Sequence record: MZ726793.1
Length of the DNA stretch: 64,000 nucleotides
Origin: Escherichia phage vB_EcoM_ASO2A
Direction: 5' to 3' (one strand)
Shown here: piece after piece, positions 16,258 through 61,541 of the stretch
Layout of the letters: each line of letters starts with the position of its first letter
How positions within the stretch are numbered: position 1 is the first letter of the stretch
Translations under genes and position numbers: made by a program
Notes under the pieces: generated by a model
The model's database searches: none
Seen by the model: only the letters and a program-made list of their open reading frames with translations
Told to the model about the DNA's origin: nothing

Positions 16258-16286
16258 GAGAATACAGCAATGGTTTAGGAGTGGTT

Positions 16287-16958
16287 ATGAAAAAGTTTGT
16301 TGTTTACAGTCGTCTTTCTAAACAGAAAAAAGGTGAGGCACAATATGGTATGGAGAGCCAAGAGAACGATATCCGTTACTTCTTAGACTCTGTACCTGAT
16401 GCGGAAGTTATTGGTCAATTTTCTGAATACTATTCGGGTAAGGGCGATTGGAAGCAACGTAAGGAACTGGTTAAAGCGGTTGAAATGTGTAAAGCTACCG
16501 GAGCAACTTTATTGGTAGCTAAAGTTGACCGCTTGGGTCGTAACAACGCCTCCGTAGCAACTCTTCTAGAAATGATCGATGTTAAGATAGCCATCATGCC
16601 AGACGCAGATAAAATGGTTATACAGCTTCTGTCTGTTCTGGCTGAACAAGAAGTTAGAGGTATTGCTGATCGTATTAAAAAGGGTCTTGCTGTAGCAAAA
16701 AGCAAAGGTGTTTTATTAGGCAGTGCTAATCCTAAAACTGCCGCTGCACGTAGAAAAGGAAAAATGGAATACAACTCTGTTAAAGCAGACGCTTTTGCAG
16801 AGACATTCCGTGAACGTTTGGAGATCCTTAGAGATTTAAATACACCTTACAAAACTATTGCTGAAAAATTCAATAGTAAGAAAATAGCAACAGCACGTGG
16901 TGGTAAATGGGATGCTAAAACTGTTTCTCGTTTGTGTGCCAGACTGAACATTAAATAG
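16287..16958 (+). CDS. small serine recombinase (resolvase/invertase family, 223 aa)
   Basis: SD aggag then ATG 16287. VYSRLSKQ (catalytic Ser region), LLVAKVDRLGRN, EQEVRGIADRIKKGL; C-terminal HTH-like TIAEKFN...GGKWDAKTVSRL. Confidence 0.85.
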   Translation: MKKFVVYSRLSKQKKGEAQYGMESQENDIRYFLDSVPDAEVIGQFSEYYSGKGDWKQRKELVKAVEMCKATGATLLVAKVDRLGRNNASVATLLEMIDVKIAIMPDADKMVIQLLSVLAEQEVRGIADRIKKGLAVAKSKGVLLGSANPKTAAARRKGKMEYNSVKADAFAETFRERLEILRDLNTPYKTIAEKFNSKKIATARGGKWDAKTVSRLCARLNIK

Positions 16959-23785: not shown

Positions 23786-24586
23786 TTATTTGTTTAAGTG
23801 GTCTTCGACCATTTTAATGAAACCTTCATTGCTGAAGGCTGTTGCAGCTTTTTCTCGGTAAACAAAAACTCCACGATCTTCATAGAGAAGTGTTTCTTCG
23901 TAATTAACTCCAGGGTTAACTACAACCATTTTTGTCCCGATATTAAGAGCAGGAAAAAGCTCCCAGTTAAAATTGATAACTTGATTAGAGCAACCCACTA
24001 CAATCACCATATCTTGAGCCGTCAAGCCGTCTAAGATGTGGTACATATCGTTATACAATGGGGCAGTCTCCCCAAAGAACACTACATTGGGCTTCACATA
24101 CTTGTAATCATCCACATCGATAGCAGCATAGCCAACATCTTTGATGATTCTATTGTCTACGATCACTTCAGGCAGGAAGCCGTGAACATGTAGAACATCT
24201 TCATGAACAACACCCGCTTGTTCCAGAAGATCATCTACGTTTGTCGTGATGTTGATAACACGATCACAGCCGTACTCTTGAAACCATTCCGCGATCTGGT
24301 AATGCGCAGCGTTAGGAGACACACTATCCATCTCTACGCGACGTTTATTGTAGAAGTCATGAGTTTTACGGTAGAGGTTGTATCCCTCTGCATCTAATCC
24401 ACCAACAGCGCCAGGAACACACTGTTCTTGCTGGTAGCCAGCACGGAAATTGAAAATGTCACACACTTCAGAAAGGTCGTATTCATCCCACAAAGCTTTA
24501 CCACTTTCTGTGTCAGTGCGGAAAGTACGAATACCGCTATCGGCGCTTAAGCCAGCGCCGCTAATCACTATTAATCGTCTTGGCAT
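23786..24586 (-). CDS. SIR2-family NAD-dependent protein (deacetylase/NADase-like), no zinc ribbon (266 aa)
   Basis: SD gaggagg. ISGAGLSADSGIRTFR, TTNVDDL, LHVHG, KPNVVFFGE. No CxxC pairs between the HG and FGE motifs. Confidence 0.8.
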   Translation of the reverse strand: MPRRLIVISGAGLSADSGIRTFRTDTESGKALWDEYDLSEVCDIFNFRAGYQQEQCVPGAVGGLDAEGYNLYRKTHDFYNKRRVEMDSVSPNAAHYQIAEWFQEYGCDRVINITTNVDDLLEQAGVVHEDVLHVHGFLPEVIVDNRIIKDVGYAAIDVDDYKYVKPNVVFFGETAPLYNDMYHILDGLTAQDMVIVVGCSNQVINFNWELFPALNIGTKMVVVNPGVNYEETLLYEDRGVFVYREKAATAFSNEGFIKMVEDHLNK

Positions 24587-26840: not shown

Positions 26841-27782
26841 TTAATAACCTCCTTCAAAAGGCTTAACTACATGTTGATTAGCTTTAAAACGTTCAACATA
26901 GTCGTTTTCGCCCATGTTTTCATATAGCTTAGTAACAACATAAAAGTTTTCCCAAGCATATTCCCTAAACCAACCACTAGTGATGGATGTGCAGACTTTA
27001 GATAAAGCCATTATAAAACTTTGCTTAGGGGTTGGACCTCCGATCTCTTCACCGAAAGGAATTTGTGAACGTTCCAAAGCCAAAACACACGCTTCTTCAT
27101 AAACACCTAACAGGCGCACATGTTTTGGTTGAGCAAAAAACTTTTCTTTGCTGGTCATAACTTCACTTCCATCTTTCATATAAGATTTATATGCTGGAGC
27201 ATCCATTAACGCGATTGCTTCATGGATAGAATCATGATCATAAACATAGGGAACCTCGTCACCTTTAAAGAAGTCTTTACTTTTTACGTTTAAGTTCGGA
27301 TGAGAGTAAGTGTATGTTTCTTTCTCACGTAACTCATAAATACTCTTAAGATTTTCTGGGATCTTTGCGCCCAGTGACCGCATGAAATGAATATCTTTCA
27401 TAGTTTTAAAGAAGTGAGGACTATCCTTTTTAAAACGATGACTCATTTTAAGAAGGTAGAGCACATCTAAAGGAGCAACAACATGTCCAGCGTAAGTTCG
27501 ACGAACATCATCAGAATCTTCACAATAACTAATCAAAGCTTCTGTGCTATCTCCTTGAGAAGCAATATCATATTCCAAATGTGCACCAGCTATCATTTTG
27601 ACGTGGCCTTTGTTCCTTTTACGTTCTACAAGTTCAACAAACTCGTCTTGAGAGAACATTTTTGATAATTCTTCCCACTCTTGTTCTGTACACAGGTAAT
27701 CTAAATCTACACAAGGGCGATACAAGTCTTTTCCCATGTCCATAGCATGAATTTGTAATGCACGGCTACCAATTAACACCAT
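26841..27782 (-). CDS. hypothetical protein (313 aa)
   Basis: SD agaggag; the N-terminal IGSRAL...DLDY faintly resembles a Pol-beta nucleotidyltransferase signature (weak). Confidence 0.65.
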   Translation of the reverse strand: MVLIGSRALQIHAMDMGKDLYRPCVDLDYLCTEQEWEELSKMFSQDEFVELVERKRNKGHVKMIAGAHLEYDIASQGDSTEALISYCEDSDDVRRTYAGHVVAPLDVLYLLKMSHRFKKDSPHFFKTMKDIHFMRSLGAKIPENLKSIYELREKETYTYSHPNLNVKSKDFFKGDEVPYVYDHDSIHEAIALMDAPAYKSYMKDGSEVMTSKEKFFAQPKHVRLLGVYEEACVLALERSQIPFGEEIGGPTPKQSFIMALSKVCTSITSGWFREYAWENFYVVTKLYENMGENDYVERFKANQHVVKPFEGGY

Positions 27783-33834: not shown

Positions 33835-34527
33835 TTAAATAGCGGTTCCTTCGAAATCCGCCACATTTACGAGATTAATATTTTCAGATTTAGAAGTCAA
33901 GTTGTTTTCTGCAACAGATTTTTCTTCAGTATCCGCCTCGTTACCTGCCACGTTACGAGGTTCTTCTTCACCGTAGGGATTACCGAATTTCAAAAGATTG
34001 ATCAATTCTTCTTTGGAGAAGTTTTCTAAATCATCGTCTGTTAATTCAATAATCTCGTCTTGTTCTTCAATAAATGTTTCACCACCAGAAAAAGCATCTC
34101 GCTTTTTAGCTACTTCCATAGCTTGTTCTGGTGTTGCCCCTGCGTCAAGAGCAGCTAAAGCAAAGTCTGACCCACTTCCTACTGCATAATATTCTTCATC
34201 AATCGGATATGCACGTGTTGGGTTGTTACCTTCGTGCAAGAAAATACGTCCGTCTGGATGAACAACAAGTGCAATAAACTCTTCATCTTCTTTATCTGGA
34301 TCAGAGTGAATCATCAAACCAGGGACAGCATCACGTGCTGCTTCGCACTGTAGATTTTGTTCAAACCATTGAAAGAAAGAAAGCACGGAGGTCAGACGAC
34401 CAGCACCACCTACAAGGTAATCTCCAATTTTTCGGACCTTTTTGAAATTAATAGAATCTACACGTCCACCAAAAGTTACCTTACCGTCACTCAAAATCTT
34501 ATTTTTGGTTGCAATAATTGTCGTCAC
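33835..34527 (-). CDS. HslV-like / proteasome beta-type Ntn-hydrolase peptidase with acidic C-terminal extension (230 aa)
   Basis: N-terminus M-TTIIATKN (Thr nucleophile after Met removal, cf. HslV MTTIVSV), KVRKIGDYLVGGAG, YAVGSGSDFALAALDAG; SD gaggagg then GTG. Confidence 0.65.
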   Translation of the reverse strand: MTTIIATKNKILSDGKVTFGGRVDSINFKKVRKIGDYLVGGAGRLTSVLSFFQWFEQNLQCEAARDAVPGLMIHSDPDKEDEEFIALVVHPDGRIFLHEGNNPTRAYPIDEEYYAVGSGSDFALAALDAGATPEQAMEVAKKRDAFSGGETFIEEQDEIIELTDDDLENFSKEELINLLKFGNPYGEEEPRNVAGNEADTEEKSVAENNLTSKSENINLVNVADFEGTAI

Positions 34528-35062: not shown

Positions 35063-35821
35063 TTAAATAAACACTTCAGTAATCAGTTTAGACAAACGTC
35101 CACGTTTATTATCGTCCGTTGTCAGTTCAACGTATCCAATAAAATCTACAATTGGCTCACGAACACCTTCTTCATTTTCTGGATATAAAAGTTCCAAAAT
35201 TTGATGCAGACCATTGCTACGTTTTTTAATTGCATATGTCTGGCGAACATCGCCTAATACAATAACATGCGTATTAATACCTGCACGTTCAATAAGAAGT
35301 TTAAGTGTTTCTGTTGACATAAGTTGTGCTTCGTCAATAATGACGATTGTATTATCCAGGGTGGCCCCCAACAAATAGTTAGGAATATTCAATTCGATCT
35401 TACCTGATCCAATATCGTTTTCCAATTTGTTGGCTGTCATGAATTGCTGGAAAATACGTTTTGTAGATTCATAGTGTGCTGCTAGTTTATCTGTTTTATC
35501 TCCAGACAAGAAACCAATCTGGTCATCTCCGACTTCAGTAGGGTTCTTGATAAAAAGTAGTTTACGGAAGTCTCCTGAACGAAGCATCTGCAAAGCTTTC
35601 CATAAAGCAACAGAGGTTTTACCAGTCCCTGCCGGAGCATTTACAACAGTCAGATCATTCCAAATCATGCTTTGAACAATCTTATTTTGGTCCCCTTCAG
35701 GCATAAATTCATCTAAACGGTAATCGTCATTACCTACCGCTTTTGCTGCATAACGGCTTTCAATCTTTGCTGAATTAGCCAGTTTCTGCCGTTGTGTTTT
35801 AGCTGCGGTTTTATTTCCCAT
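35063..35821 (-). CDS. phoH: PhoH-like ATPase
   Basis: SD aaggag then ATG 35821. NAPAGTGKTSVAL (Walker A), VIIDEAQ (Walker B). The track start 35872 would run through a hairpin. Confidence 0.9.
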   Translation of the reverse strand: MGNKTAAKTQRQKLANSAKIESRYAAKAVGNDDYRLDEFMPEGDQNKIVQSMIWNDLTVVNAPAGTGKTSVALWKALQMLRSGDFRKLLFIKNPTEVGDDQIGFLSGDKTDKLAAHYESTKRIFQQFMTANKLENDIGSGKIELNIPNYLLGATLDNTIVIIDEAQLMSTETLKLLIERAGINTHVIVLGDVRQTYAIKKRSNGLHQILELLYPENEEGVREPIVDFIGYVELTTDDNKRGRLSKLITEVFI

Positions 35822-35858
35822 AGTAGCACTCCTTTTAGAAGGGGCCGAAGCCCCTTTA

Positions 35859-36359
35859 TTAGTTGTAAGCATCTAAAGTTCCAGAAGTCAGAACTTTAAT
35901 TACTCGTTCAGCACGGTTTGGCGTCTGGCTATACCATCGGCTTTTACGCATGTTTTTACCTGCTTGAGTATAATATGCATTGCTGATTAAAGTCAAGCTA
36001 TTTTGAAACCCTTCAGCACCTTTTAACCCCAACTGGAAAACCATGTTGATTATTCCCAATTTACGAGTATCACTAACCTTATCATAGATTGGTGATAAGA
36101 TAGCACTGTTTTTTATGTCTCTCTTCACTTTTGCAACATCGTCAGCAAAGATTTGACGGGCTTCTTTTTCTGTGATAACTCCATTAGTCTTACGACCAAG
36201 AAGATTATCTAAGATTTGAATAGCCTTTGCTTTATCTTTTATTTTAGTCAGAAGGTGTCCTATGCCGACTGTCCAATAACCAAGATGGTCTTGATAAACA
36301 GTAAGCTTCAGTCCTTCATCGACTCGTAGCATATCAAACTCATCTACTACTTTAGCCAT
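35859..36359 (-). CDS. T4-type lysozyme (GH24 endolysin)
   Basis: FDMLRVDEGLKLTVYQDHLGYWTVGIGHLLTK ... SRWYSQTPNRAERV aligns by eye with T4 gp e. Confidence 0.95.
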   Translation of the reverse strand: MAKVVDEFDMLRVDEGLKLTVYQDHLGYWTVGIGHLLTKIKDKAKAIQILDNLLGRKTNGVITEKEARQIFADDVAKVKRDIKNSAILSPIYDKVSDTRKLGIINMVFQLGLKGAEGFQNSLTLISNAYYTQAGKNMRKSRWYSQTPNRAERVIKVLTSGTLDAYN

Positions 36360-36366: not shown

Positions 36367-36516
36367 CTATTCGTCGTCTCCTACTCCGTGATCCAACTCG
36401 TTAAACAACAGATGTTCTGGAGAAGTTTCACGTTTTGGTTTCGTTTTCTTTATGTTGGACTTCAGCTCATTTGCCAAAGCACGAGAAAAGATCTTACGTT
36501 TCTGTTTACTTTTCAT
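36367..36516 (-). CDS. 49-aa basic peptide
   Basis: not in track; SD ggag 8 nt upstream; MKSKQKRKIFSRALANELKSNIKKTKPKRE... Confidence 0.4.
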   Translation of the reverse strand: MKSKQKRKIFSRALANELKSNIKKTKPKRETSPEHLLFNELDHGVGDDE

Positions 36517-36521: not shown

Positions 36522-36782
36522 TTACTCCGCAATTTGAGCCATGAGATCACGCAGTTCGGTAAAACCGCCTACGTATGTTACCTCCCCGTTCACTTCGGAC
36601 AGAATTTGTGGAAATGTGCGTGGAGGAACTCCGGTAAGATCAACAACTGTTTTAGTCATTGATTCTAAATCATAGTCTTGATCAAGACTTAAATATTCAA
36701 ACTGTTTATTGCGCATGGTTAATAGTTGTTTTGACATTTCACAAAATTGACAGTTAGGTTTACCAAAAATTACAAATTCCAT
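36522..36782 (-). CDS. glutaredoxin / NrdC-like thiol-disulfide oxidoreductase (86 aa)
   Basis: FGKPNCQFCEMSKQLL (CxxC), ..TFPQI..., GGF..L; TAATG coupling to rmlD. Confidence 0.8.
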   Translation of the reverse strand: MEFVIFGKPNCQFCEMSKQLLTMRNKQFEYLSLDQDYDLESMTKTVVDLTGVPPRTFPQILSEVNGEVTYVGGFTELRDLMAQIAE

Positions 36783-37624
36783 TACCTCTCCTTATTAAGT
36801 AATACTGCTAAAGACTGTTCAATACCTTTATTTAAATCTGATTTTGTAAGATAGTGACTGGTTACTAGTTGTGACTTCACCGGACGTGCTGCTGGAGCAT
36901 TATAGGTTGAAGCTGATACCGCCGATATCTTAACAGGTTCTGGCATCTGTGTCAAGATCTTTTCCGCAAACTCCGCCCAAGAAATAAGATGGCTTCCTGC
37001 AAAATGGTAAGTCTTAACAGACCTTGACCAACCTGTTTTTAATACTTCAAAAATAGCTTCTGCTAAATCTGGAGCATATGTTGGACAAGAGAACTGATCA
37101 GCAACAATAATAAAATCACGTTGTCCATCATTATAGCGAGACAACATGGTTTTTAGAAAGTTATTTCCAAATTCGCTATATACCGAGGCTGTTCGAATAA
37201 TATATGCATTTGGGTTAACTCCTCGCACCATTTTTTCACCAAGTTCTTTCGTATACCCATAATTGTTTATTGGGTTAGGTGTAGTATCTTCAAAAATAGG
37301 ATGAGAATAATTAAAAATATAGTCTGTAGAAATATGCACAAAATCAATTTTAAGTTTGCTGCACACTGCCGCAATATTTGCAGGTCCATACGCATTAACA
37401 GCCAAAGCAGTAGCAAAATCATGTTCTGCTTTATCTACAGCCGTATAAGCGGCGCAATTAATAACACCATCTACATAATCTTCAATAATAGCGTTTCGCA
37501 CAGCTTCAAAATTTGTAATATCTACACGTTCTTTAGGATAAATTAAAGATACATTTGAAGGAGCCACTTTACGTAAAGCTTGTCCCAGTTGTCCATTACC
37601 GCCCAATACCAGATATGTTAGCAT
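36782..37624 (-). CDS. rmlD: dTDP-4-dehydrorhamnose reductase
   Basis: LVLGGNGQLGQAL Rossmann N-terminus, 280 aa, position after rmlC, overlapping start. Confidence 0.9.
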   Translation of the reverse strand: MLTYLVLGGNGQLGQALRKVAPSNVSLIYPKERVDITNFEAVRNAIIEDYVDGVINCAAYTAVDKAEHDFATALAVNAYGPANIAAVCSKLKIDFVHISTDYIFNYSHPIFEDTTPNPINNYGYTKELGEKMVRGVNPNAYIIRTASVYSEFGNNFLKTMLSRYNDGQRDFIIVADQFSCPTYAPDLAEAIFEVLKTGWSRSVKTYHFAGSHLISWAEFAEKILTQMPEPVKISAVSASTYNAPAARPVKSQLVTSHYLTKSDLNKGIEQSLAVLLNKER

Positions 37625-38184
37625 ACACCCTCGCTACGTAACTGTTGAAAAGATTTAGCCATTGCATCTTTTGTTGATAGAATAGGTTTAAAACCTTCGT
37701 CAAAAATCATATCGAAGCCCCAATCGATCCCTATATCAGGATCATCCCAACGTAAACTTTGTTCACTAGAAGGGTCGTATGGAGTTGTGCATTTGTATTC
37801 AAAGATAGCATCCATACTCAAAACTATAAAACCATGAGCCAAACCAGGCGGAAGCCAAAACTGCGTATGGTGTCGTGCACGAAGAACAACACCGTCCCAA
37901 GCACCGTAAGTTGGACTATCTTTACGTAAATCTACAGCGAAATCCAATACTTCCCCACTTACACAACGAACTAGCTTACCTTGCGGGTTATTTGTTTGAA
38001 AGTGCATTCCTCGCAAAACACCGAAGTTTGATTTAGACATGTTATCTTGAACGAAAGTTTGTCTACCAATAATATCTTCGTATTTTTGTTCATTATATGT
38101 TTCTAGAAAGAAACCACGATCATCTTTATAAACGTCTGGTTTGATAATTACCGCACCTTCAATTTTTGTTTTTTCTACTTTCAT
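37618..38184 (-). CDS. rmlC: dTDP-4-dehydrorhamnose 3,5-epimerase
   Basis: start ATG 38184 (ATGA overlap with the rmlA stop); [50 protein letters not shown]. Confidence 0.9.
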
Positions 38185-39059
38185 TTTCTCTCCGCTAATT
38201 TGAGTAGGTATTGCCCGTACTCTGTTTTCTTCAGTGAGTTTCCATGATACACCAAAGTCTCTAAAGAAATCCACCCTTTTTTGAAAGCAATTTCTTCCAG
38301 GCACGCAATCTTCAATCCTTGACAGTTCTCAATAGTCTGCACGAATTGACCAGCTTCCATCAGACTGGCGTGTGTTCCTGTGTCAAGCCAAGTAAATCCT
38401 CGTCCGAGAACTTCCACTTGTAACTTCCTGTCTTCTAGGTAGCTGCGATTGATATCAGTGATCTCCAGTTCTCCACGCGCGGAAGGGGTTACTTCTAATG
38501 CACGTTGAATAACAGAGTTATCATAGAAATACAAACCTGTGACAGCATAATCTGATTTAGGATTTTCAGGTTTCTCTTCAATAGAAATAGCTTGACGATT
38601 ACTCCCAAATTCAACCACACCGAATCGTTCAGGATCTTTCACCAAATACCCGAAAATACAAGCTCCGCCCCAAACATCTACCATCTCACTGGCGTTAATC
38701 AGTAGTTTACCAAAGCTTTGTCCGAAGAATAGGTTGTCACCTAAAATAAGAGCAACAGAGTCTTCTCCGATAAAATCTTTACCTATGATGAAAGCTTCCG
38801 CAAGACCTCGTGGCTCGGATTGGATTGCGTAAGTGAGTTTTATCCCAAACATAGACCCATCTCCGAGAAGATACTCAAAGTCTTCCTGATCACCTGGTGT
38901 GGTGATGATTAAAATATCCTTAATGTCAGCCAACATCAATACCGATAAAGGGTAGTAGATCATGGGTTTGTCATACACAGGGAGCAATTGCTTGCTCACA
39001 CTGCGTGTTACCGGATGAAGGCGGGTTCCGCTTCCTCCCGCCAAAATAATACCTTTCAT
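38181..39059 (-). CDS. rmlA: glucose-1-phosphate thymidylyltransferase
   Basis: [37 protein letters not shown]. Confidence 0.95.
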
Positions 39060-39067
39060 AACCCTCC

Positions 39068-40060
39068 TTAAATTTTCTCACTCCACCATTGAGGGTTGTT
39101 TAAGTACCATTCAATCGTTGAGTAGAGATCTTGTTCAAATGTAGAGTTTGCACTCCAGCCCAGTTCAGACTCTATCTTAGAAGGATTGATTTCATAACGC
39201 AAGTCATGTCCTTTACGATCTTCAACAAAAGTTATCAAGTTGGAAGAAGGGTAGGTTACTGCTTCTGGATGTACAGTATCCATATAGTCACAAACCATAT
39301 AGATGATCTCCATATTGGTTTTGGGATTACGTGTTCCAACATTATACGTTTGACCTGGTTCTCCACCTGTTGCCACTTGAAGAATAGCTCGCGCATGATC
39401 CTCAACAAAAAGCCAGTCTCGCACCTGGTCGCCTTTACCATACACCGGAATCTCTTTATTCGTCAAGATACTTGTGATGATTTTTGGGATCAGCTTTTCT
39501 GGATGTTGATAAGGCCCAAAGTTATTGGAGCAGTTGGTTATCACAACAGGCAAATCGTAGGTGCGGTGCCAAGCTTTCACAAGATGGTCAGATGCCGCCT
39601 TAGACGCACTGTATGGGCTTGAAGGGGCATAAGCTGTCTCTTCGGTAAAAGGAACGCCAGAGTCTGCCATATCGCCGTACACTTCGTCTGTGGAGACGTG
39701 TACGAACATCTTCAGTTTATTTTTTGGGAGGAGCCTTGCAGCTTCCAATAAATTGTATGTACCAATAATATTGGAGTCAATGAAAACTCGTGGATTCTTG
39801 ATAGAATTATCCACATGACTCTCTGCCGCTAAGTGAATGATGAAATCGGGATTGCACTCTACTACTAAACTTTTGACCTGGGTTTCGTTTGCCAAATCTG
39901 TCATGCTTAGTTTAATGTGAGTGATATCGCCTACATTCTCAATATCTGCTGCATAGCCCATCTTATCAACGACAAAAACTTCGTTATTAGGATCTTGACA
40001 AAGAGAGCGCACCACGGCACTCCCAATAAAACCAAGACCACCTGTTACCAGATAGCGCAT
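39068..40060 (-). CDS. rmlB: dTDP-glucose 4,6-dehydratase
   Basis: [30 protein letters not shown]. Confidence 0.95.
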
Positions 40061-40069
40061 CAGTTCTCC

Positions 40070-40396
40070 TTACCAGACATGTTGAGAAATAATAGTTTCC
40101 GTTTTAATGTTATATTTTTCAAGTAGTTTTGCATAGGCTTCTTTTGCATTCTCATTCAATTGCTCAAGATCTACAGCTATGCTTCCCTCTCCGCCTTCTA
40201 AATCAAGGCCATATATGCAATAAGACTCATCCGCATCGTAGAAAGGAGAGATGCGGCTTAAGTCCAGACCTTCTTGTAAGAACCAGTTAAAATCTCCATC
40301 AAATTCTTCTTCAATTCTAGGATCTTCTCCTACAGCCTCTTCCCATTTATTAAAAGGTGCACCCTGTAACATACGCCATGCAATATCAACTCCCAC
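40070..40396 (-). CDS. hypothetical acidic protein (108 aa)
   Basis: GTG start; overlaps the end of the upstream mini-ORF. Confidence 0.5.
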   Translation of the reverse strand: MGVDIAWRMLQGAPFNKWEEAVGEDPRIEEEFDGDFNWFLQEGLDLSRISPFYDADESYCIYGLDLEGGEGSIAVDLEQLNENAKEAYAKLLEKYNIKTETIISQHVW

Positions 40397-40532
40397 TATC
40401 TTCCTCCTCTTCTTTTTCTTCTGTATGAACGAAACCTAAGCCGTTACAATTCCAACAAGGAATAAATTGTTCCATACTAACAATAAAATTCCCAGTGCCG
40501 CCGCAGATAGGACAAATACTTACATCATCCAT
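40386..40532 (-). CDS. stand-alone DnaJ-type zinc-finger mini-protein (48 aa)
   Basis: not in track; SD gaggag; MDDVSICPICGGTGNFIV...CWNCNGLGFV. Confidence 0.5.
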   Translation of the reverse strand: MDDVSICPICGGTGNFIVSMEQFIPCWNCNGLGFVHTEEKEEEEDSGS

Positions 40533-40534
40533 TA

Positions 40535-40717
40535 TTAAAGCTCCTCAATCTTTTCTAACATCTGTTTTAACTCATTCTCTGTTAACAGAATTTCTGTGAT
40601 ACCATCATAAGTTTCTACCATCAGAGTAAAACATTTTTCCCCATCTGAACACACAAAAGCGCCACCTTCATCTTCTGTTAAGTCAGAATTAATATCTACA
40701 TCACCAAAATCAATCAT
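40535..40717 (-). CDS. hypothetical acidic protein (60 aa)
   Basis: SD aaggag then ATG 40717. Confidence 0.5.
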   Translation of the reverse strand: MIDFGDVDINSDLTEDEGGAFVCSDGEKCFTLMVETYDGITEILLTENELKQMLEKIEEL

Positions 40718-40928
40718 CTTTTTCTCCTTTGATAATTTCAAACTTGGCTACACCATTAACTATAATGTGACCACAAGACATAACTCCTAGCCAAGGATCG
40801 CCGTTTTTCTTCAGGCGTTTACCGAATACATCACAAAAACCATTCTTCATTTCGGAGGCTTCATAAGAAGCCCCTTTATCAAAAACGTCTTTGAATGTGT
40901 CGATTATACCAACACATCTCAAAATCAT
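40710..40928 (-). CDS. hypothetical protein (72 aa)
   Basis: TAATG overlap with the nrdB stop. Confidence 0.5.
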   Translation of the reverse strand: MILRCVGIIDTFKDVFDKGASYEASEMKNGFCDVFGKRLKKNGDPWLGVMSCGHIIVNGVAKFEIIKGEKDD

Positions 40929-42013
40929 TAGAAGTCAAGCTCCTCATCATCAGAGAGATCTTTGTTAGCTGAATTCAATTTGTAATTAGTTAACTGAATC
41001 TCTTGGGCTGCTGACTGAATCAAATCAGGATTCAACCATTTTTCCATCCAAGCTAAAGGACTATGTTTAGGTGCTTTAAACTTGGCTTTCATTTTCAATC
41101 GACGATAAATAGGAGCAGCATTGAAATAAACCCACTGTTTAGACAATTCGGCGTTAAGACCTACAATAAAACGACCTTCACTAAACAGGTAGTCACACCA
41201 CTGTTCCTCTTGTTCAACAACAGTGTCGAGGATCAAAGTCAACTCTTCAATATTGTCTTCGTAAATTTTACGCCAAATTGGGTCATGCATCAATGCATCA
41301 ATTACAGCATAATCCATCTTAACATGCAAGATTTCATCTAGCATAATTTTCTGGATCAGTTTACAAGCCCCAACAAACAGTTGTTGTTCTGCCATAGCAA
41401 AAGTAGCAGAGAAGGAAGATATAAACTGAATACCTTCTAATCCAATCAGGGCTACCATCCCTTTAAGAATCAGCAGTCGAAGTTCATCGTTAGCTTCAAT
41501 CAATCCTAGAGCATACTTATGACCAGCTTCTTCCAACTGACCCATGATATCAGCAATGATACCCATACGATTGAAAATTTTATCATTAATCATAATCTGA
41601 TTGATGACTTCAATTGGATCTGGAGTACATTGACGGATTATTTCAGAATACGTTAACGCATGGAGAACTTCCATTTCACTCTGCTTCATCATCATAGCAC
41701 AGGCTTCATTGTTACTCAAGAATGGAGAGAACAAAGTGATGATTGATTTTGCAAGAGAATCATTTTCCCATTGGAACGATAAGTTTTTAATCATAACATC
41801 ATAGTTGTTTTTAGAACAAGCTACGAAATCTTTACGTGTCTGATCCAGATTAACTTCGTTTTCATCCCAATCTTGTGCTTTTTGAAGTTTGTAGAGTTTG
41901 TGCATTTCAGGGTAAGTCACGTTGATAGAATCAAAAATCCCCAACTGTTCCCCCATGAAAACTGGATATTTACCTGTTTTGTAAGTCTCGTTATGTAAAT
42001 TAATTGCTGCCAT
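40928..42013 (-). CDS. nrdB: ribonucleotide reductase class Ia beta subunit
   Basis: 361 aa; EVLHALTYSEII, EGIQFISSFSATFA, DEILHV iron-site helices; acidic C-terminal tail. Confidence 0.95.
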   Translation of the reverse strand: MAAINLHNETYKTGKYPVFMGEQLGIFDSINVTYPEMHKLYKLQKAQDWDENEVNLDQTRKDFVACSKNNYDVMIKNLSFQWENDSLAKSIITLFSPFLSNNEACAMMMKQSEMEVLHALTYSEIIRQCTPDPIEVINQIMINDKIFNRMGIIADIMGQLEEAGHKYALGLIEANDELRLLILKGMVALIGLEGIQFISSFSATFAMAEQQLFVGACKLIQKIMLDEILHVKMDYAVIDALMHDPIWRKIYEDNIEELTLILDTVVEQEEQWCDYLFSEGRFIVGLNAELSKQWVYFNAAPIYRRLKMKAKFKAPKHSPLAWMEKWLNPDLIQSAAQEIQLTNYKLNSANKDLSDDEELDF

Positions 42014-42338
42014 TTAAATCCTCCACTATTTCACAAAAACCTCTTAAGCTTAAAATATCTTCTTCCTCAAAATCATTGCTCCGGTAGAAAGCTTCCAGTG
42101 CTTCCCATACGCTTCTACCAAGTATAACAGTCACTGTTTCTTCACTTCTTGCCCTTGTTATTGCGTAAGCCGTGGCTTCTGGATAAAAAGATTCCCAAAT
42201 CTGCATGTTAGCTATTTCAAGACCGCCAAGATAATGGTGACACCAAGTAGGGGTAAAATCTTCAGGGCGAATCAACAGAGGCTTAAACCCAGGTCGGTAG
42301 ATTGGGGTTACTCCAGGTAAAACTATAATTGTGCTCAT
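42000..42338 (-). CDS. hypothetical protein between nrdA and nrdB (112 aa)
   Basis: SD gaggagg then ATG 42338. Confidence 0.55.
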   Translation of the reverse strand: MSTIIVLPGVTPIYRPGFKPLLIRPEDFTPTWCHHYLGGLEIANMQIWESFYPEATAYAITRARSEETVTVILGRSVWEALEAFYRSNDFEEEDILSLRGFCEIVEDLNGSN

Positions 42339-42349
42339 AATCCTCCTCA

Positions 42350-42371
42350 ATAAAAAGGGGCTGAAGCCCCT
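42350..42371 (-). terminator. hairpin / attenuator after nrdA
   Basis: minus strand AGGGGCttcaGCCCCT + tttta. Confidence 0.5.
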
Positions 42372-42378
42372 AGTTTCA

Positions 42379-44619
42379 TCACATTTTGCAAGCTTCACAA
42401 CCACCATCAGAATCTTCTTGTGCTAAAGAGTCTGCTGATTTTGTTCTACTGTTAAGGTAATACAATGACTTGCCACCCAGTCTAGCAAAATTCAGAATAA
42501 ACTGCATCTCAGCTTTCACTGATAAACGTCCACCTACCAATTTAGAATAATCTAGCCAAGAATCACAAGAAATTCCTTGGTCCGTAAACTTGGTAAAGAT
42601 ACCATACATTTCTGCAAGATCTTTAGCCGGAGTGTCCCAGGCAGACTGGTAGAACATTTTCAGTTTTTCATAGTCTGGAACAATAAATAATACACTACCT
42701 TTCTGACTTTGTTTATACATAATAGTATCACGAACAGGATACAGAGAGTTAGTAGTATTGCTTACCAAACTGCTGGACTCATTAGGTGCAATAGCAGCCA
42801 AGACACTGTTACGGATACCACCTTGTTCAATGATTTCAGCACGTAAGCCTTCCCAGTCCATTTTAAGATCAAAATTACCGATACTATCTACTGTTTTAGC
42901 ATAAGTGTCAATTGGTAGCCAACCTTGAGGCCATTTGGTCTTATCGATCCATTCTGCATTACCTTTTTCCTTAGCCAGACGCAGAGAGGCTTTTGCCAAC
43001 CAAAAGTAATGACGTTCTGCAAGTTCATGCATTAATTTTTTAGCATAAGCGTCTGAATAATTTACAAAATTACTTGCCAAATAATGCGCTAAGTTTGTAA
43101 TGCCTACACCAATAGATCTACGTGCTTTAGCAGTTATTTCGTTATGTTTAAATGGATAATCCATTGTTTCAATAACGTTGTCAATTGTCAATACAGTGTA
43201 GTATGCAACATCCTCATATTCTTCAGGTAAGACACGACCAGCAACAATAGAAGATAAGAAGCATAAAGCCAATTCTTGATTTTCTGTATTCTCACCAGTA
43301 AAGAGATCCGGCATACTGTGGAAAGCTTTAGTTGGTAAGAAGATCTCTTGACACAGGTTTGATTGATACACCGTATCCAGGAAAGGTGTATGGTTGTTAA
43401 CGTTGTCAGCAAAGAACATGTAAATACGTCCTGTTTCTGCACGTTGAACAATAATCTCTGTCAGAAGATCACGAGCCTTAACAAATTTTTTCTTAATGCG
43501 ACGACGGCTTACTTTGTCATAAACTGCATCAAACTCTTCTTCACTTTTATACAAAGCTTCATAAAGTTCAGGAGCATCATCACAACTAACTAACATCCAA
43601 TCTTCGTTTTTTGCTGCTCGACGCAAGAACGAACGGTTAACAACAATAGAATAATCCAGTTTGTCTACTCGTTTATCTATAGGTGTTGTTGGATTCTTCA
43701 GTCGAATCAGATCGTCGAAGTCTGGTTCAAGTATGGTAAAGGTAACTGTAGCACTACCTCCACGGCTTGCTTGCTTCGAAGCTCCAACACTATCTTCCAT
43801 CCATTTCAGATACGGAAGAAGACCACCATGAATAATACGATTATTCTTAACACCTTGACCTGTGGCACGAGTTTGAAGATTAACACCAATACCTGCGTTA
43901 TTCAACGTATACTCATGAGCTAAGTAATTAGCAATGGCTAAAGACTCTGCCGTATCGTCTGCACGGAACAAACAACAAGACGCACTTCCTTTGATTGGAG
44001 TTCGTAGAGTTGTCAGATACGGCGATGGCAGATTAATCTTAAGATCGCTAACATAAGTATAAAGTTTTTTAATATCTTCTATACGGCGTTCTTTTGGTTG
44101 GATCTCCATAACCTTCATTGCGATACCAATGAAAAGAAACTGTGGAGACTCATGCACCACATCGTTTACTGCATCTCGAATAAGATATTTATCTACCATC
44201 TGACGTAAAACAGAATAACCATAAGTTAGATTTTTATTATGCTTTACAATCTTACCGATTTCTTTGATCTCTTCATCAGTATAATCCATTTTAGCCCAAT
44301 GTCCACGTTCTACCATATCATGATAAAAGGTATTCAGTGAAGGGATACTGTGGTATCCCCCATGAGCCTGTTTGTAAATCATACCCAGAAGAAGTCTTCC
44401 TGCCATATCACTGTAAGCTTGTGTTTTCTTGTCAATACACGCTGCAATCATTGCTTTATGCAGATCACGTGTAGACACACCGTCATAACACCGCTTCACA
44501 GCTTCTAATTCAATTTCAGACCAGTTTAGTTTACCTGCTGCAAATTCAGACCACTTGCGAAGTTTTTCTGGATTAAACTCCTCTGTCTTACCGTTAGATT
44601 TAGTTACAAAACGAATCAA
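42379..44619 (-). CDS. nrdA: ribonucleotide reductase class Ia alpha subunit
   Basis: 746 aa; N-terminal ATP-cone-like VTKSNGKTEEFNPEKL, ..SCCL.., NLCQEI, C-terminal CEAC pair; TTG start after gggaggag. Confidence 0.95.
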   Translation of the reverse strand: MIRFVTKSNGKTEEFNPEKLRKWSEFAAGKLNWSEIELEAVKRCYDGVSTRDLHKAMIAACIDKKTQAYSDMAGRLLLGMIYKQAHGGYHSIPSLNTFYHDMVERGHWAKMDYTDEEIKEIGKIVKHNKNLTYGYSVLRQMVDKYLIRDAVNDVVHESPQFLFIGIAMKVMEIQPKERRIEDIKKLYTYVSDLKINLPSPYLTTLRTPIKGSASCCLFRADDTAESLAIANYLAHEYTLNNAGIGVNLQTRATGQGVKNNRIIHGGLLPYLKWMEDSVGASKQASRGGSATVTFTILEPDFDDLIRLKNPTTPIDKRVDKLDYSIVVNRSFLRRAAKNEDWMLVSCDDAPELYEALYKSEEEFDAVYDKVSRRRIKKKFVKARDLLTEIIVQRAETGRIYMFFADNVNNHTPFLDTVYQSNLCQEIFLPTKAFHSMPDLFTGENTENQELALCFLSSIVAGRVLPEEYEDVAYYTVLTIDNVIETMDYPFKHNEITAKARRSIGVGITNLAHYLASNFVNYSDAYAKKLMHELAERHYFWLAKASLRLAKEKGNAEWIDKTKWPQGWLPIDTYAKTVDSIGNFDLKMDWEGLRAEIIEQGGIRNSVLAAIAPNESSSLVSNTTNSLYPVRDTIMYKQSQKGSVLFIVPDYEKLKMFYQSAWDTPAKDLAEMYGIFTKFTDQGISCDSWLDYSKLVGGRLSVKAEMQFILNFARLGGKSLYYLNSRTKSADSLAQEDSDGGCEACKM

Positions 44620-45395: not shown

Positions 45396-46394
45396 TCACC
45401 ATTTAGTATGATTTGTTAAAAGTTGACGATGTTGAATCCAGCCTTTGAAATTGCCAGACCAAAACTTACCATTACGATCTACATGGGTAATACCTGGTTC
45501 CCAAGAGTTAAAATCCCAAGGAGCATTGATAAACAAATCTTCAAAACAGTTCTCTCCATATTGTTCGCATGTTTCTTGAATTGGAGTGGCTTGATGTTCA
45601 AACGGAGAAGCATGAACCTTGCGCCCAGTCAGCAAACGACCATAGATATCTAAAGCTTTATCTTTAGTTGCATTTAAACGACGATAGCTAACCTGTGCAC
45701 AACATGAAGCTGAAATAGCTTTGGCTTCTTCCAAGGTAAGCACAACAACTTCTCCAGATTCATCTTGAACGTAGTATCCACCAAAAACAAAATGATCGTC
45801 ACCTTCTGTGCCAATATTATCGTAGAAATGGTCTACATAAGGTGTGTGCCATTGCCCTGGTTTCAGCACTTCTGGTGTAGATCCTTCATACTCTTTGTGC
45901 ATCTCTTTAGCCAAAGCTTCGATAGTAGGATCGGCTTCTTTGTCATCACGTAGCCACCAGAAATTTTCATATTCTGTTGCTGTCAGAACTGTTTTAATTC
46001 GTTGGAAAGGTTCCAGAAGACGGTTTGCAACTTGTTTGTGGTACCCTGCCAAAGAGAATTCTTCTGCAAAACGTGCTGCACTAAGCGCGGCAAGATCCCA
46101 CCACTCTTGAGCAGTATAACCTGCATCAATAAGAGCGTCATGATCAACACCTTTATCCTGCATACCAGGTTGGTTAGCCCCAAAACGATAAGGACGAGCA
46201 GGTTGATTTCGCACCATTTCAATCAGTGTTTTAACAGGTATAGCACGGCTAGAAGCAGCATTACGACTGAACAGGCGGTGAGTCATCAATTCTGAATGAA
46301 TAATACGTGGATATTCTAGTTCAAAAGTTACAATCTCTTTTCCGTCTTCAGTGATGGAATGCGCAATAATACTAGCCGAAATCTGTTTTGTCAT
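45396..46394 (-). CDS. thyX: flavin-dependent thymidylate synthase
   Basis: THRLFSRNAASSRA matches the ThyX RHRxxSxxxxSxR motif; SD taaggag; 332 aa, longer than typical. Confidence 0.85.
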   Translation of the reverse strand: MTKQISASIIAHSITEDGKEIVTFELEYPRIIHSELMTHRLFSRNAASSRAIPVKTLIEMVRNQPARPYRFGANQPGMQDKGVDHDALIDAGYTAQEWWDLAALSAARFAEEFSLAGYHKQVANRLLEPFQRIKTVLTATEYENFWWLRDDKEADPTIEALAKEMHKEYEGSTPEVLKPGQWHTPYVDHFYDNIGTEGDDHFVFGGYYVQDESGEVVVLTLEEAKAISASCCAQVSYRRLNATKDKALDIYGRLLTGRKVHASPFEHQATPIQETCEQYGENCFEDLFINAPWDFNSWEPGITHVDRNGKFWSGNFKGWIQHRQLLTNHTKW

Positions 46395-46403: not shown

Positions 46404-47012
46404 TTAGTTTTTAAAATTGTTCAAAGTGTTAAAAACATCCAAACATGTTAGCCACTGATCTTCTAAACCTGTGATCACAACATTTGGTTTTTTCTTTAGT
46501 TCTTCTAGATGGTTATCTTTATAAGGCGTATTAAAATATATTTTAACCACTTCATCTGGAAAATATAGTAGGTTATCAGCCCTGTCATCTATTGCTATAT
46601 CACAAGGCAATAAGTATTTTTCTTTCGTAGCAAAAAAGCCGTTACCAGATCCTTTGCTAAAATCAATCGTATCTAACGTTCTTAAAACATGCTTATGTTT
46701 AGAACTTAAGTGACCACCTTTTGTCACACTTGCGATCAAAAGATTGCTACCTTTCCTTGAAACATACTTTAAGAAATCTGGCATACCTGGAACAAAACCC
46801 ATTGTATCATAGAGATGAGGATTATCCAGAAATCCGTAAGGATCTATATTGAACTCCTCCCTGAAACCAGGAAAGTAGTTGGTAAGATCATAGTCTGCAT
46901 TTTTTGTGAATGTGTCTATCTTAACACCAAGTCCACTAATCTTATTCAACCATTCTAACCAAGCAACATCTAATGGAGCCACAACTAAATCCCAATCACA
47001 TACTATCTGCAT
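46404..47012 (-). CDS. HAD-superfamily phosphatase, 5'(3')-deoxyribonucleotidase-like
   Basis: VCDWDLVV (DxDxV motif I), LLIASV, SKHKH, IAIDDRADN. Confidence 0.55.
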   Translation of the reverse strand: MQIVCDWDLVVAPLDVAWLEWLNKISGLGVKIDTFTKNADYDLTNYFPGFREEFNIDPYGFLDNPHLYDTMGFVPGMPDFLKYVSRKGSNLLIASVTKGGHLSSKHKHVLRTLDTIDFSKGSGNGFFATKEKYLLPCDIAIDDRADNLLYFPDEVVKIYFNTPYKDNHLEELKKKPNVVITGLEDQWLTCLDVFNTLNNFKN

Positions 47013-51803: not shown

Positions 51804-52529
51804 TTACTTGTTAATAATACCTGCAATATTAGGTTTGACAAAGGTCGATGGTTTCATGATCTTACCTTTATCATCAAAGAACACATACACTTTCTGTTTT
51901 TCATTATAAACAGCATGAACACCAGTGTATGCCCCTTCTGGACGATTGGCATTTCGTTCTTCAATTGCAGCGCATTCTTGTGCAATGGCTGAATCGATAT
52001 CCGAAGTTTTCCAAGTTTTCAGCAACTGTTGTTTAGTTGGATACTTGGAATCATTACTTTTCAATACCTCTTTAATAACTTTCTTTTCTGGATATTTTGA
52101 ACGGATTAGAGTGTCACGAGACATACGCATAATACCAGCAGCCATTAGTGCCATTTGAACTGGCTCTGTAAATGTTTGTTCCAAAGCATCAAAATCAGTA
52201 TACACAGTTGGAGTAAAAACATCGCCTACAGCATAGTCCAAGAAATTCATCGTATGTTCTTCACCAAAGAACATGTAAGTCAGATAACTGGATACTACAA
52301 AAATATCCGCTGCTGCATCCAAGAGTTCTACATGATCGTTTACTTTCGCGGCTGTTTCATACTCTTTAAGCTCTTCACGAACGAACCCGATTTGGGACAT
52401 AAATAACTCTTGAGTGAATTCAGGTTGTTCACCACCTCGTGCTTTGGCATTCCAATCAATTACGTGCTTTGCTGCATTTTTGAAAAATTCAGTATCGAAT
52501 TTAATATCTTTAAAAAAATTCTCGATCAT
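51804..52529 (-). CDS. MazG-like all-alpha NTP pyrophosphohydrolase (241 aa)
   Basis: REELKEYETAAKVNDHVELLDAAADI fits an ExxE...ExxD signature. Confidence 0.45.
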   Translation of the reverse strand: MIENFFKDIKFDTEFFKNAAKHVIDWNAKARGGEQPEFTQELFMSQIGFVREELKEYETAAKVNDHVELLDAAADIFVVSSYLTYMFFGEEHTMNFLDYAVGDVFTPTVYTDFDALEQTFTEPVQMALMAAGIMRMSRDTLIRSKYPEKKVIKEVLKSNDSKYPTKQQLLKTWKTSDIDSAIAQECAAIEERNANRPEGAYTGVHAVYNEKQKVYVFFDDKGKIMKPSTFVKPNIAGIINK

Positions 52530-55046: not shown

Positions 55047-55979
55047 TTATCCTCCAAAGAAGTTTTCGATTTTTTCACGTCGCTCCTGCTGATTTAAAGC
55101 AGCCCATTGAGTCTTCGTAAAATTATTTCGAATCCATTCTAACAAAGCGTAATATTCTTCGTCAACAATTTGTTTGGCATTTTTTGGATTATCCCAAATC
55201 AGATCCCACTTTTTATCTCCACCACGCATAAGAAACTTCTTAGTAAGATAGTGTGGTGATTTAATTTTTAAAAGTAAGTTGAACGGATAGTTTGTTTCAC
55301 GAACTACAAATCCTTCGTGTTTACAATGTTTAGACATTTCAACAACATCTGAAAACTTAACCATTGGATGAACTTCAGGACGCTTAAATTTGGTGACAGA
55401 AGCAATTCCATCAAGAGCACCTTCAGGTAACATAAAACTTGTCCCATCAGGATTTTGAATTCTGGCACCAATTAAGTATGCACCTGGTTCTTCTTCGACA
55501 ATATGCGGATCAGAAGGATCACAGATTTCAAAAAGGAAAGTTGCTTTTGCACTCTCTATCCATTTGATGAAATGTTCTATGTCATCACACTCTGAAATAA
55601 TATGATTCTTTGCAATACTTGCAAAATCTGATTCAAGGCTTCCTGTTGTCGATACAATAAGTTGACCTTTATATACACCTACAGAGGCCATAAAACCATT
55701 TACTTTACGAACCACATCTACAAATTCATCCGCTGGTAGATCTGTGCCATTCTCAAAACGATTAAAAATCTTAGTGAAAGGCCAAATAACAACATTGTCA
55801 TCATCGTCAACAACGATTCCGCGACATTCTAGAAGACGAGAATCAATGTTCCACAGGTTATCCCAGAAAACTTTGTTCTTATACTTAAGAACAGATAGAC
55901 CAGAATACTCTCCTTCTTTATATGTTTTCTTATGAACTAAACCTTTTTCAACCAAATCGTCGCAATTAAATTTAGCCAC
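55047..55979 (-). CDS. Rnl1-type RNA ligase (310 aa)
   Basis: LECRGIVV and PFTKIFNRFE parallel T4 Rnl1 LECRGIMF/PMEKFFNLNE; RKVNGFM as the nucleotidyl-lysine motif; GTG start after aaggagag. Confidence 0.7.
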   Translation of the reverse strand: MAKFNCDDLVEKGLVHKKTYKEGEYSGLSVLKYKNKVFWDNLWNIDSRLLECRGIVVDDDDNVVIWPFTKIFNRFENGTDLPADEFVDVVRKVNGFMASVGVYKGQLIVSTTGSLESDFASIAKNHIISECDDIEHFIKWIESAKATFLFEICDPSDPHIVEEEPGAYLIGARIQNPDGTSFMLPEGALDGIASVTKFKRPEVHPMVKFSDVVEMSKHCKHEGFVVRETNYPFNLLLKIKSPHYLTKKFLMRGGDKKWDLIWDNPKNAKQIVDEEYYALLEWIRNNFTKTQWAALNQQERREKIENFFGG

Positions 55980-61156: not shown

Positions 61157-61231
61157 GGCCCTGTAGCTCAATGGGAGAGCTGTCGGCTCATAACCGATAG
61201 GTAGCTGGATCGAAACCAGCCAGGGCCACCA
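61157..61231 (+). tRNA. tRNA-Met (CAT), CCA encoded
   Basis: acceptor GGCCCTG/CAGGGCC, anticodon loop CTCATAA, T arm GCTGG-ATCGAAA-CCAGC. Confidence 0.85.
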
Positions 61232-61233
61232 AC

Positions 61234-61308
61234 GTCTTTATGGTGTAATGGATAGCACAGGAGTCTTCTAAACTCTTAGTCAAGGTTCGATTCCTTGTAA
61301 AGACACCA
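61234..61308 (+). tRNA. tRNA-Arg (TCT), CCA encoded
   Basis: acceptor GTCTTTA/TAAAGAC, loop CTTCTAA, T arm CAAGG-TTCGATT-CCTTG. Confidence 0.85.
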
Positions 61309-61309
61309 G

Positions 61310-61492: not shown

Positions 61493-61503
61493 TTAAAAAA
61501 CTA

Positions 61504-61533: not shown

Positions 61534-61541
61534 ATAAGTAT

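Follow-up and report, generated by a model that had tools for sequence, protein, structure and literature searches.

Why would a virulent coliphage carry, within a block of nucleotide-metabolism genes, all four genes for the synthesis of deoxythymidine diphosphate (dTDP)-L-rhamnose, and where would the sugar go? This question is raised by the rml cluster of Escherichia phage vB_EcoM_ASO2A, which was studied here in a 64,000-nt stretch of record MZ726793.1 (hereafter the window; coordinates count from its first nucleotide unless another record is named). With 99.3-99.5% identity to Escherichia phages PNJ1809-36 and phAPEC8, the window is phAPEC8-like (Phapecoctavirus, Stephanstirmvirinae). The results described below lead us to consider it somewhat probable that the pathway supplies the sugar donor for a cassette of glycosyltransferases which phages of this type themselves encode at a distant locus.

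The presence of the rml cluster is already known. The gene names already appear in the annotated records listed, phAPEC8 among them, with annotation dating from 2012, and at least three papers have remarked on it: Olsen et al. termed the cluster 'peculiar' and put forward a DNA modification idea (PMC7552041), Maffei et al. (2021) mentioned a 'putative dTDP glycosylation machinery' (PMC8594841), and a 2023 study reported that phage ESCO37 is devoid of rmlA and rmlB (PMC10269720). The finding itself, already annotated and commented on in papers, is therefore not new. A first-pass annotation of the window had allowed that this might be a well-described feature of the phage group with a known role; the description does exist, but the known role does not, and no functional study of the phage rml cluster was found in the literature searched. 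What the present analysis adds is the insertion site, the split into an rmlCD core and accessory rmlBA genes together with a mechanism for the deletion of the latter, the non-host origin of the cluster, and its link to a four-gene glycosyltransferase cassette, for which relatives bearing a dehydratase gene provide independent support.

Results

All four genes are minus-strand open reading frames (ORFs). They comprise rmlB (39068-40060), encoding a dTDP-glucose 4,6-dehydratase of 330 amino acids (aa); rmlA (38181-39059), encoding a glucose-1-phosphate thymidylyltransferase of 292 aa; rmlC (37618-38184), encoding a dTDP-4-dehydrorhamnose 3,5-epimerase of 188 aa; and rmlD (36782-37624), encoding a dTDP-4-dehydrorhamnose reductase of 280 aa. 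The longest rmlC ORF begins at a GTG at 38304, while public records place the start at the ATG at 38184. The corresponding Pfam matches were GDP_Man_Dehyd/Epimerase (5e-80), NTP_transferase (8e-73), dTDP_sugar_isom (1e-66) and RmlD_sub_bind (2e-73), respectively. When NCBIfam equivalog models with curated cut-offs were applied, four out of four proteins passed: RmlB scored 431.7 bits against a cut-off of 365.1 (TIGR01181), RmlA 464.5 against 360.65 (TIGR01207), RmlC 225 against 155.75 (TIGR01221) and RmlD, by a narrow margin, 237.6 against 224.05 (TIGR01214).

Comparison with solved structures pointed in the same direction. The top PDB matches of RmlB were Salmonella enterica RmlB (1g1a, 1.5e-110) and E. 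coli RffG (1bxk), and in the alignment the GxGxxG, STDE (Thr-Asp-Glu) and YSASK (YxxxK) motifs are kept. RmlA, whose top match was 4ho0 (4.8e-125), aligns with 4ho0 and 1mc3 over GGSGTRL, the Gln in YAIQ, LGDN, EEKP and WLDTG. RmlC matched the RmlC structure 1dzr best (4e-56), compared with 1e-25 to 1e-29 for the mono-epimerases NovW, EvaD and ChmJ, and its catalytic His, Lys, Tyr and Asp are kept, which fits a true 3,5-epimerase. RmlD retains GGNGQLG, STDY and YGYTK, with the short-chain dehydrogenase/reductase (SDR) triad present. Loss of catalytic residues, which the first-pass annotation had named as an outcome that would speak against the pathway, was thus found in none of the four enzymes, and its description of four intact genes holds. 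Judged by these motifs and profiles, the four enzymes are an intact, functional-looking and complete predicted dTDP-L-rhamnose route.

The genes are also tightly coupled, as had been proposed. An 8-nt spacer containing a GGAGG ribosome-binding site separates rmlB from rmlA, rmlA and rmlC share an ATGA overlap, rmlC and rmlD overlap by 7 nt, and a TAATG overlap joins rmlD to the glutaredoxin gene grx.

Although the pathway is complete in the window, as first described, the four genes are not conserved as a unit. At an identity of at least 95%, RmlD was present in 64 records and RmlA in 46, rmlB-rmlA being missing from approximately 18 of the 64 Phapecoctavirus records; counted over Escherichia-named records, the numbers were 106 for RmlD and 87 for RmlA. 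Most Klebsiella members likewise lack the rmlB-rmlA pair: Klebsiella phage phi1_175008 harbors rmlC and rmlD only, and among the Klebsiella-named records listed, an RmlA match was seen in 05F01 only. By contrast, the catalytic residues of RmlC and RmlD are kept in four phage lineages (the window type, phi92, phiWec181 and the Klebsiella phage) despite identities of 54-65%. The conserved and, by this pattern, selected unit is rmlC-rmlD, with rmlB-rmlA dispensable in nature.

ESCO37 illustrates how the accessory pair can be lost. The segment absent from ESCO37-type genomes, which comprises rmlB and rmlA, corresponds to 38194-40064 of the window (minus strand; boundaries from blastn), with the GGAGA of two Shine-Dalgarno sites at its edges. 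The ESCO37 junction reads TAAGGAGA joined to GAAAATG. Because it falls within the GGAGA common to the ribosome-binding sites of rmlB and rmlC, the loss is read as a microhomology deletion that set rmlC behind the ribosome-binding site of rmlB. A late arrival of rmlB and rmlA, considered on the basis of composition, was discarded: their GC content at third codon positions (0.40) is above that of the neighbours, but this amounts to a z of only ~1.4 among the 73 genes of the window, and phi92 shows no such composition split.

Enterobacteria make dTDP-4-keto-6-deoxyglucose themselves, either via RffH/RffG for enterobacterial common antigen (ECA) or via RfbA/RfbB. Since the host would supply this intermediate, the phage would need the last two steps only, and rmlB-rmlA would act as a booster.

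In the first-pass annotation no glycosyltransferase had been recognised. This is correct for the window but not for the genome, as a search of the rest of it, carried out on phAPEC8, uncovered four adjacent glycosyltransferase genes (gp074, gp073, gp072 and gp071) located ~70 kb from the rml cluster and flanked by the primase/helicase and endolysin genes. The products of gp073 and gp074 are paralogs with the GT-B fold (Pfam Glyco_trans_1 families; one shared PHROG). No significant Pfam match was obtained for gp071 and gp072, and an NCBIfam scan of the glycosyltransferases gave no matches; AlphaFold models of gp071 and gp072 (predicted local distance difference test, pLDDT, 92 and 87, respectively) show GT-A folds with DxD motifs.

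The cassette occurs in the same phage groups as the rml genes. Counts of tblastn matches by organism were identical for RmlD, gp072 and gp073 (Escherichia, 106; Campylobacter-labelled, 5; Phapecoctavirus, 3; Justusliebigvirus, 3), and ESCO37, without rmlBA, retains all four glycosyltransferase genes. In addition, a gp071-gp072-gp073(-gp074)-gp075-primase arrangement recurs in many of 27 IMG/VR loci, and in two divergent lineages (L012 and L107) a nucleoside diphosphate (NDP)-hexose 4,6-dehydratase, with RmlB as best family match, is encoded between the gp071 and gp072 homologs. The dehydratase inside the cassette of these two relatives therefore constitutes an independent physical link of the cassette with 6-deoxyhexose synthesis. 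Among the best 25 of 52 families, the recurrent partners near the cassette in 15 divergent loci were phage housekeeping families only.

These observations weigh directly on the idea that the rml genes have a purely metabolic role and serve no glycosyltransferase at all, dTDP-4-keto-6-deoxyglucose or deoxythymidine triphosphate (dTTP) being diverted in order to disturb host envelope synthesis (e.g., that of ECA) or to buffer thymidine nucleotide pools. Such a role would suit a cluster sitting inside a deoxynucleotide-supply operon, with RmlA consuming dTTP and RmlC/RmlD acting, as is textbook knowledge, where the route to dTDP-Fuc4NAc branches off. However, the same phage groups, and among them ESCO37 with its rmlBA deletion, have retained the glycosyltransferase cassette, relatives carry a 4,6-dehydratase within it, and RmlB plus RmlA would increase the flux rather than drain it. 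The link to ThyX and ribonucleotide reductase through dTTP, drawn in the first-pass annotation, is chemically true, but specific evidence for it is missing, the sister group having the nucleotide operon without rml genes. One version of this scenario, in which the phage would deplete its own receptor by diverting an ECA precursor, was dropped, as the premise of ECA as receptor has since been revised and the NGR glycan is now invoked to explain why phi92-like phages depend on wecB. Altogether, we regard a purely metabolic role as highly unlikely.

A second possibility is that rhamnose is placed on phage DNA, similarly to the glucosylated hydroxymethylcytosine (hmC) of T-even phages or the arabinosyl-5-hydroxycytosine of RB69, in order to evade host nucleases. 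It has been proposed in print (PMC7552041), multi-glycosyltransferase DNA glycan pathways that use phage-made NDP-sugars do exist (PMC13326640), and genes for replication and nucleotide metabolism surround the rml cluster as well as the cassette. Within the cassette, gp072 gave weak local matches, confined to residues 32-70, to the TAGT family PF20691 (E 1e-3, below the cut-off) and to phrog_842 (7.6e-6), the PHROG of the T-even beta-glucosyl-HMC alpha-glucosyltransferase; no named T-even glucosyltransferase was among its top BFVD fold matches. gp072 carries the R..DDD..ED motifs described for GT-A enzymes that act on DNA, but this set is generic to inverting GT2-type enzymes, and three of the four glycosyltransferases are acidic (isoelectric point, pI, 4.9-6.0).

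The genetic background speaks against this idea. The sole thymidylate synthase is of the ThyX type and common to rV5 and PVP-SE1, both of which are without rml genes. No TET/JBP enzyme, C5-methyltransferase, ThyA homolog or hydroxymethylase was found in the ten larger unassigned ORFs of the window or in the phAPEC8 annotation, the remaining ORFs being unscanned, and among the best 25 of 52 families no DNA-modification enzyme recurred beside the cassette in divergent loci. Moreover, phi92-like phages with the same genes were reported to be 'exceptionally susceptible' to restriction-modification systems (PMC8594841), an observation made on relatives and not on this phage. Because of this restriction sensitivity and because no acceptor-making enzyme was present in the ORFs scanned or annotated, wholesale DNA glycosylation seems unlikely, while a sparse, site-specific modification may take place. 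Modified DNA bases, one of the options listed in the first-pass annotation, thus come out as the least supported of them, and we consider rhamnosylation of phage DNA quite improbable.

The predicted folds were also inspected for hints of the acceptor. The solved folds nearest to gp071 are those of the protein O-glycosyltransferases COLGALT1, LH3 and ppGalNAc-T2, at a template modelling (TM) score of 0.4-0.5, and the dTDP-rhamnose enzyme RmlT is a fold neighbour of both gp071 and gp072, likewise as a generic match (TM 0.4-0.5). Deducing the acceptor from these folds was abandoned since, although the models are confident, the matches are generic GT-A ones.

Fold neighbours of gp071 and gp072 include the wall-teichoic-acid enzymes TarP, TarS and RmlT, which would accord with the sugar being placed on host envelope glycoconjugates (undecaprenyl diphosphate-linked intermediates, lipopolysaccharide (LPS) core or surface polysaccharide), thereby masking receptors, blocking superinfection or reducing the sticking of progeny to debris. 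dTDP-L-rhamnose serves envelope glycans in enterobacteria, as is textbook knowledge, and pairs of the gp072/gp073 type are also present in lambdoid-type contigs, a setting in which morons that modify the envelope are frequent. The entry of phi92-like phages was reported to depend on surface glycans and LPS core (PMC8594841), a picture since updated to the NGR glycan. Nevertheless, in the short cycle of a virulent phage, pre-existing surface molecules would stay unmodified. Neither a flippase, a polymerase, an initiating phosphoglycosyltransferase nor a Gtr-type membrane protein lies beside the cassette, the glycosyltransferases are devoid of transmembrane segments, and no experimental hint of such a modification was found in the literature searched. 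We therefore consider an envelope target rather unlikely.

Two further observations were made at the cassette locus. The gp075 gene (phAPEC8 NC_020079, 109340-109618; L004, 2341-2619) encodes an acidic protein of 92 aa (pI 4.2; phrog_4240), and in most cassette loci where both neighbours were detected it sits between the last GT-B gene and the primase gene; its product might be a partner of the cassette enzymes or their substrate, or else serve in replication. Besides, a tellurite-resistance-like set (TerD, vWA-TerF, TelA, TerC and Band_7) adjoins the endolysin gene and the cassette (phAPEC8 NC_020079, 114088-121891; L004 and L003) and is kept in a divergent relative (L013, 1201-8331).

With regard to the distribution of the cluster, RmlD homologs were detected in 156 phage records, at identities of at least 95% in Phapecoctavirus, 65% in phiWec181, 58% in Klebsiella members and 54% in phi92-like Justusliebigvirus; beyond these groups, matches were scattered and at most 41% identical. 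The view of the first-pass annotation that a whole pathway in the operon of a virulent phage is unusual is supported. In phi92, the B-A-C-D-grx-lysozyme order is found at the identical site after nrdB, and the further members examined (phi92, phiWec181 and a Klebsiella phage) have the cluster at that position. This contrasted with the rV5-like sister group (phage 'ime'), in which nrdB is followed directly by a glutaredoxin homolog. Because the site is empty there, the cluster is taken as a Stephanstirmvirinae-specific insertion between nrdB and grx.

Records with NrdB at an identity of at least 95% numbered 64, as did those with RmlD at that threshold, and RmlD was present in all 64. The Rml proteins of phAPEC8-type and phi92-type phages are 54-72% identical (62-72% for the rmlB-rmlA products of Phapecoctavirus and Justusliebigvirus), which was placed inside the range of the flanking genes, from Grx at 56% to NrdB at 84%. 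These comparisons are those of a cluster that is vertically inherited and old in the phage subfamily.

As for a bacterial source, the top DNA match among 5,426 E. coli genomes covered 45% of the query at ~64% identity, and the closest cellular RmlD proteins among 185,579 species representatives came largely from Bacteroidota and reached at most 44% identity. On account of these low values, the cluster does not appear to be a recent host capture. The E. coli host gene order, B-D-A-C, also differs from the B-A-C-D order of the phage.

Five records labelled 'Campylobacter phage' (host C. jejuni; MG065650, MG065639, MG065689, MG065656 and MG065677) match E. coli Phapecoctavirus, Justusliebigvirus and Vequintavirus. 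MG065650 has 98% DNA identity to the window, and the other four show protein identities equal to those of E. coli phages of these genera. Their Campylobacter host labels are probably wrong, or the samples contaminated.

The cluster is flanked by nrdA and nrdB on one side and by glutaredoxin and lysozyme genes on the other, as previously noted, although not in direct adjacency: four small ORFs separate nrdB from rmlB, and grx and the lysozyme gene have a 49-aa ORF (36367-36516) between them. Downstream, the insertion ends at grx (36522-36782, minus strand; PF00462, 1.8e-9), which is translationally coupled to rmlD. Upstream, rmlB is adjoined by a 108-aa ORF (40070-40396, minus strand), a homolog of phAPEC8 gp165 (phrog_15453, 9e-73). 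A gp165-like ORF stands directly upstream of the rml genes in each case, with 91% identity in phi92 and 48% in the Klebsiella phage, and it is kept in ESCO37. A promoter and terminator scan revealed nothing informative inside the cluster; terminator-like sites numbered 7 compared with 6.7 in shuffled sequences, and promoter-like sites 43 compared with 30.5 (around two standard deviations above), none of them informatively placed.

Two variable spots were noted nearby. The first is a 306-nt segment with small ORFs (40415-40720), which has no match in phAPEC8 or ESCO37, accounts for the uncovered 6% in all top-30 related records, and is found a short way upstream of the rml genes, flanked by the gp165-like ORF on one side and the small ORFs near nrdB on the other. 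At the second (42000-42407), a 135-aa ORF (phrog_17458) overlaps the nrdA/nrdB junction, and a terminator-like GC hairpin (42371-42356) lies just past nrdA. At this junction there is only a 45-nt gap in ESCO37 and an HNH endonuclease in phi92, so that it looks like an indel hotspot.

Regarding the surrounding block, the 'thymidylate synthase' (45396-46394) is a divergent ThyX of 332 aa, in which PF02511 (5e-8) covers residues 22-176 only; it scored 31 bits with TIGR02170, far under the cut-off of 88, and matched phage phrog_85 strongly. The block also encodes an HslV/proteasome-like protease (33835-34527), PhoH (35063-35872), an NT5C-type deoxynucleotidase (46404-47012) and a MazG-like pyrophosphohydrolase (51804-52529), while the ORF at 47049-47624 matches in position an HNH endonuclease annotated in phAPEC8. 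Elsewhere, the window encodes a Sir2-family protein (23786-24586), a DUF7277+DUF7275 protein (26841-27782), a T4-type RNA ligase (55047-55979) and a serine recombinase (resolvase; 16281-16958), the last being present although the phage is virulent. Ten tRNA genes (Met, Arg, Ser, Asn, Thr, Gly, Gln, Pro, Ile and a second Met-type) are located on the plus strand at 61157-63169; a Tyr tRNA is annotated in phAPEC8, but none was called in the window.

Discussion

Taken as a whole, these results are consistent with a scheme in which the four genes would represent a phage-owned dTDP-L-rhamnose route, expressed within the early/middle nucleotide-metabolism transcription block. RmlC and RmlD would turn host-made dTDP-4-keto-6-deoxy-D-glucose into dTDP-L-rhamnose, and RmlA and RmlB would be an optional booster that frees the phage from the host flux. 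The dTDP-L-rhamnose would then be used by the two GT-A enzymes (gp071 and gp072) and one or two of the GT-B paralogs (gp073 and gp074), which together would build a rhamnose-containing glycoconjugate during infection. That the rml pathway is the donor supply for the phage's own glycosyltransferase cassette is, in our judgement, slightly more probable than its contrary. A bolder proposal, namely that Stephanstirmvirinae coliphages, which are in wide use in therapy cocktails, decorate their own virions with a rhamnose-containing glycan by means of this two-locus system (RmlC/RmlD, with or without RmlB/RmlA, plus the GT-A/GT-B cassette), is put forward tentatively, as a possibility on which we would not rely. 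As for the acceptor, virion proteins, which would thus bear a glycan coat, are favoured because of the analogy with mycobacteriophage Che8 and giant viruses.

Several points weigh against this interpretation. The co-occurrence of rml genes and cassette was derived from organism counts, not from record-by-record matching, and lies within one clade, so that it is phylogenetically non-independent; moreover, the two loci are ~70 kb apart, and the Klebsiella phage has two of the four glycosyltransferases, those of the gp071 and gp073 types only. No donor or acceptor is assignable to any cassette glycosyltransferase, as the fold matches of the models are generic (TM 0.4-0.5), and the profiles of three glycosyltransferase families gave no matches against PDB sequences. 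Given the narrow cut-off margin of RmlD, its product may be the C4 epimer, dTDP-6-deoxy-L-talose. An orthology of gp071/gp072 with Che8 gp108-110 was rejected, as BLASTP of gp072 against gp108 gave an E of 4e-4 over the DxD region only and the hhalign probability was below 1%; Che8 was kept as an analogy. Finally, no report of glycans on virions of phAPEC8- or phi92-type phages was found in the literature searched.

Phapecoctavirus and Justusliebigvirus are broad-host-range coliphages which have been repeatedly isolated for therapy and biocontrol. If they did carry a rhamnose glycan coat, this could affect immune clearance, neutralisation, antibody recognition, stability, adsorption and host range; similar effects in glycosylated mycobacteriophages are reported in secondary sources (PMC11256854, PMC12363180). 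Among phages that infect Gram-negative bacteria, the proposed coat would also be the first virion glycan coat on record, made through a nucleotide-sugar pathway of the phage itself. Should the sugar go to DNA or to the host envelope instead, this would reveal a sugar donor new to DNA modification or a novel chemistry of superinfection exclusion. The question is tractable, given the natural rmlBA deletion in ESCO37, genetically easy hosts (rfb and rff mutants) and predicted products that are simple to assay.

Regarding known systems, the phage cluster shares with the bacterial rfbBDAC/rmlBDAC loci of E. coli and Salmonella (and with the rffH/rffG paralogs) the same four enzyme families and catalytic residues. 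It differs from them in its B-A-C-D instead of B-D-A-C order, in its site between nrdB and grx of a virulent phage, in having no linked Wzx/Wzy or O-antigen genes, and in an RmlD that resembles Bacteroidota and Firmicutes forms more than it does the enterobacterial protein.

To our knowledge, dTDP-rhamnose does not serve as a sugar donor for DNA. Phage DNA glycosylation systems nonetheless resemble the present one in using phage-made or phage-used NDP-sugars and several glycosyltransferases in a setting among DNA-metabolism genes. They include the T-even phages with their alpha- and beta-glucosyltransferases, RB69 and DLP3, with arabinosyl-5-hydroxycytosine and phage synthesis of uridine diphosphate (UDP)-arabinose (PMC13326640), and the TET-associated glycosyltransferases (bioRxiv 2023.12.21.572611). 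phAPEC8-type phages differ from these in that a base hydroxyl(methyl)ase is lacking among the ORFs examined and in that relatives are restriction-sensitive.

The mycobacteriophages Che8 (gp108-110), Corndog and Myrna glycosylate their virions according to Freeman et al. (2023), as cited in PMC11256854 and PMC12363180, where capsid and tail proteins are given as targets in cluster-F mycobacteriophages. Che8 and phAPEC8 both encode a multi-glycosyltransferase cluster outside the structural module, including GT-A enzymes with DxD motifs, but in the Che8 region examined, genes for making sugar nucleotides are absent. In our tblastn searches, gp072 gave matches of ~1e-8 to 327 cluster-F mycobacteriophage glycosyltransferase genes, and it matched phrog_1579 at 6e-13; homology with Che8 is limited to the GT-A nucleotide-binding half.

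Among giant viruses, Mimivirus has UDP-L-rhamnose synthesis and fibril glycosyltransferases, and chlorovirus PBCV-1 has capsid glycans. These viruses have eukaryotic hosts, employ UDP- or guanosine diphosphate (GDP)-sugar routes and modify proven acceptors, whereas the phage encodes the bacterial four-enzyme dTDP route. Megavirus glycosyltransferases are among the BFVD fold neighbours of gp072, and in giant viruses as in phAPEC8-type phages, it is the virus that, independently of its host, encodes both a 6-deoxyhexose nucleotide pathway and glycosyltransferases which use, or in the phages would use, its product.

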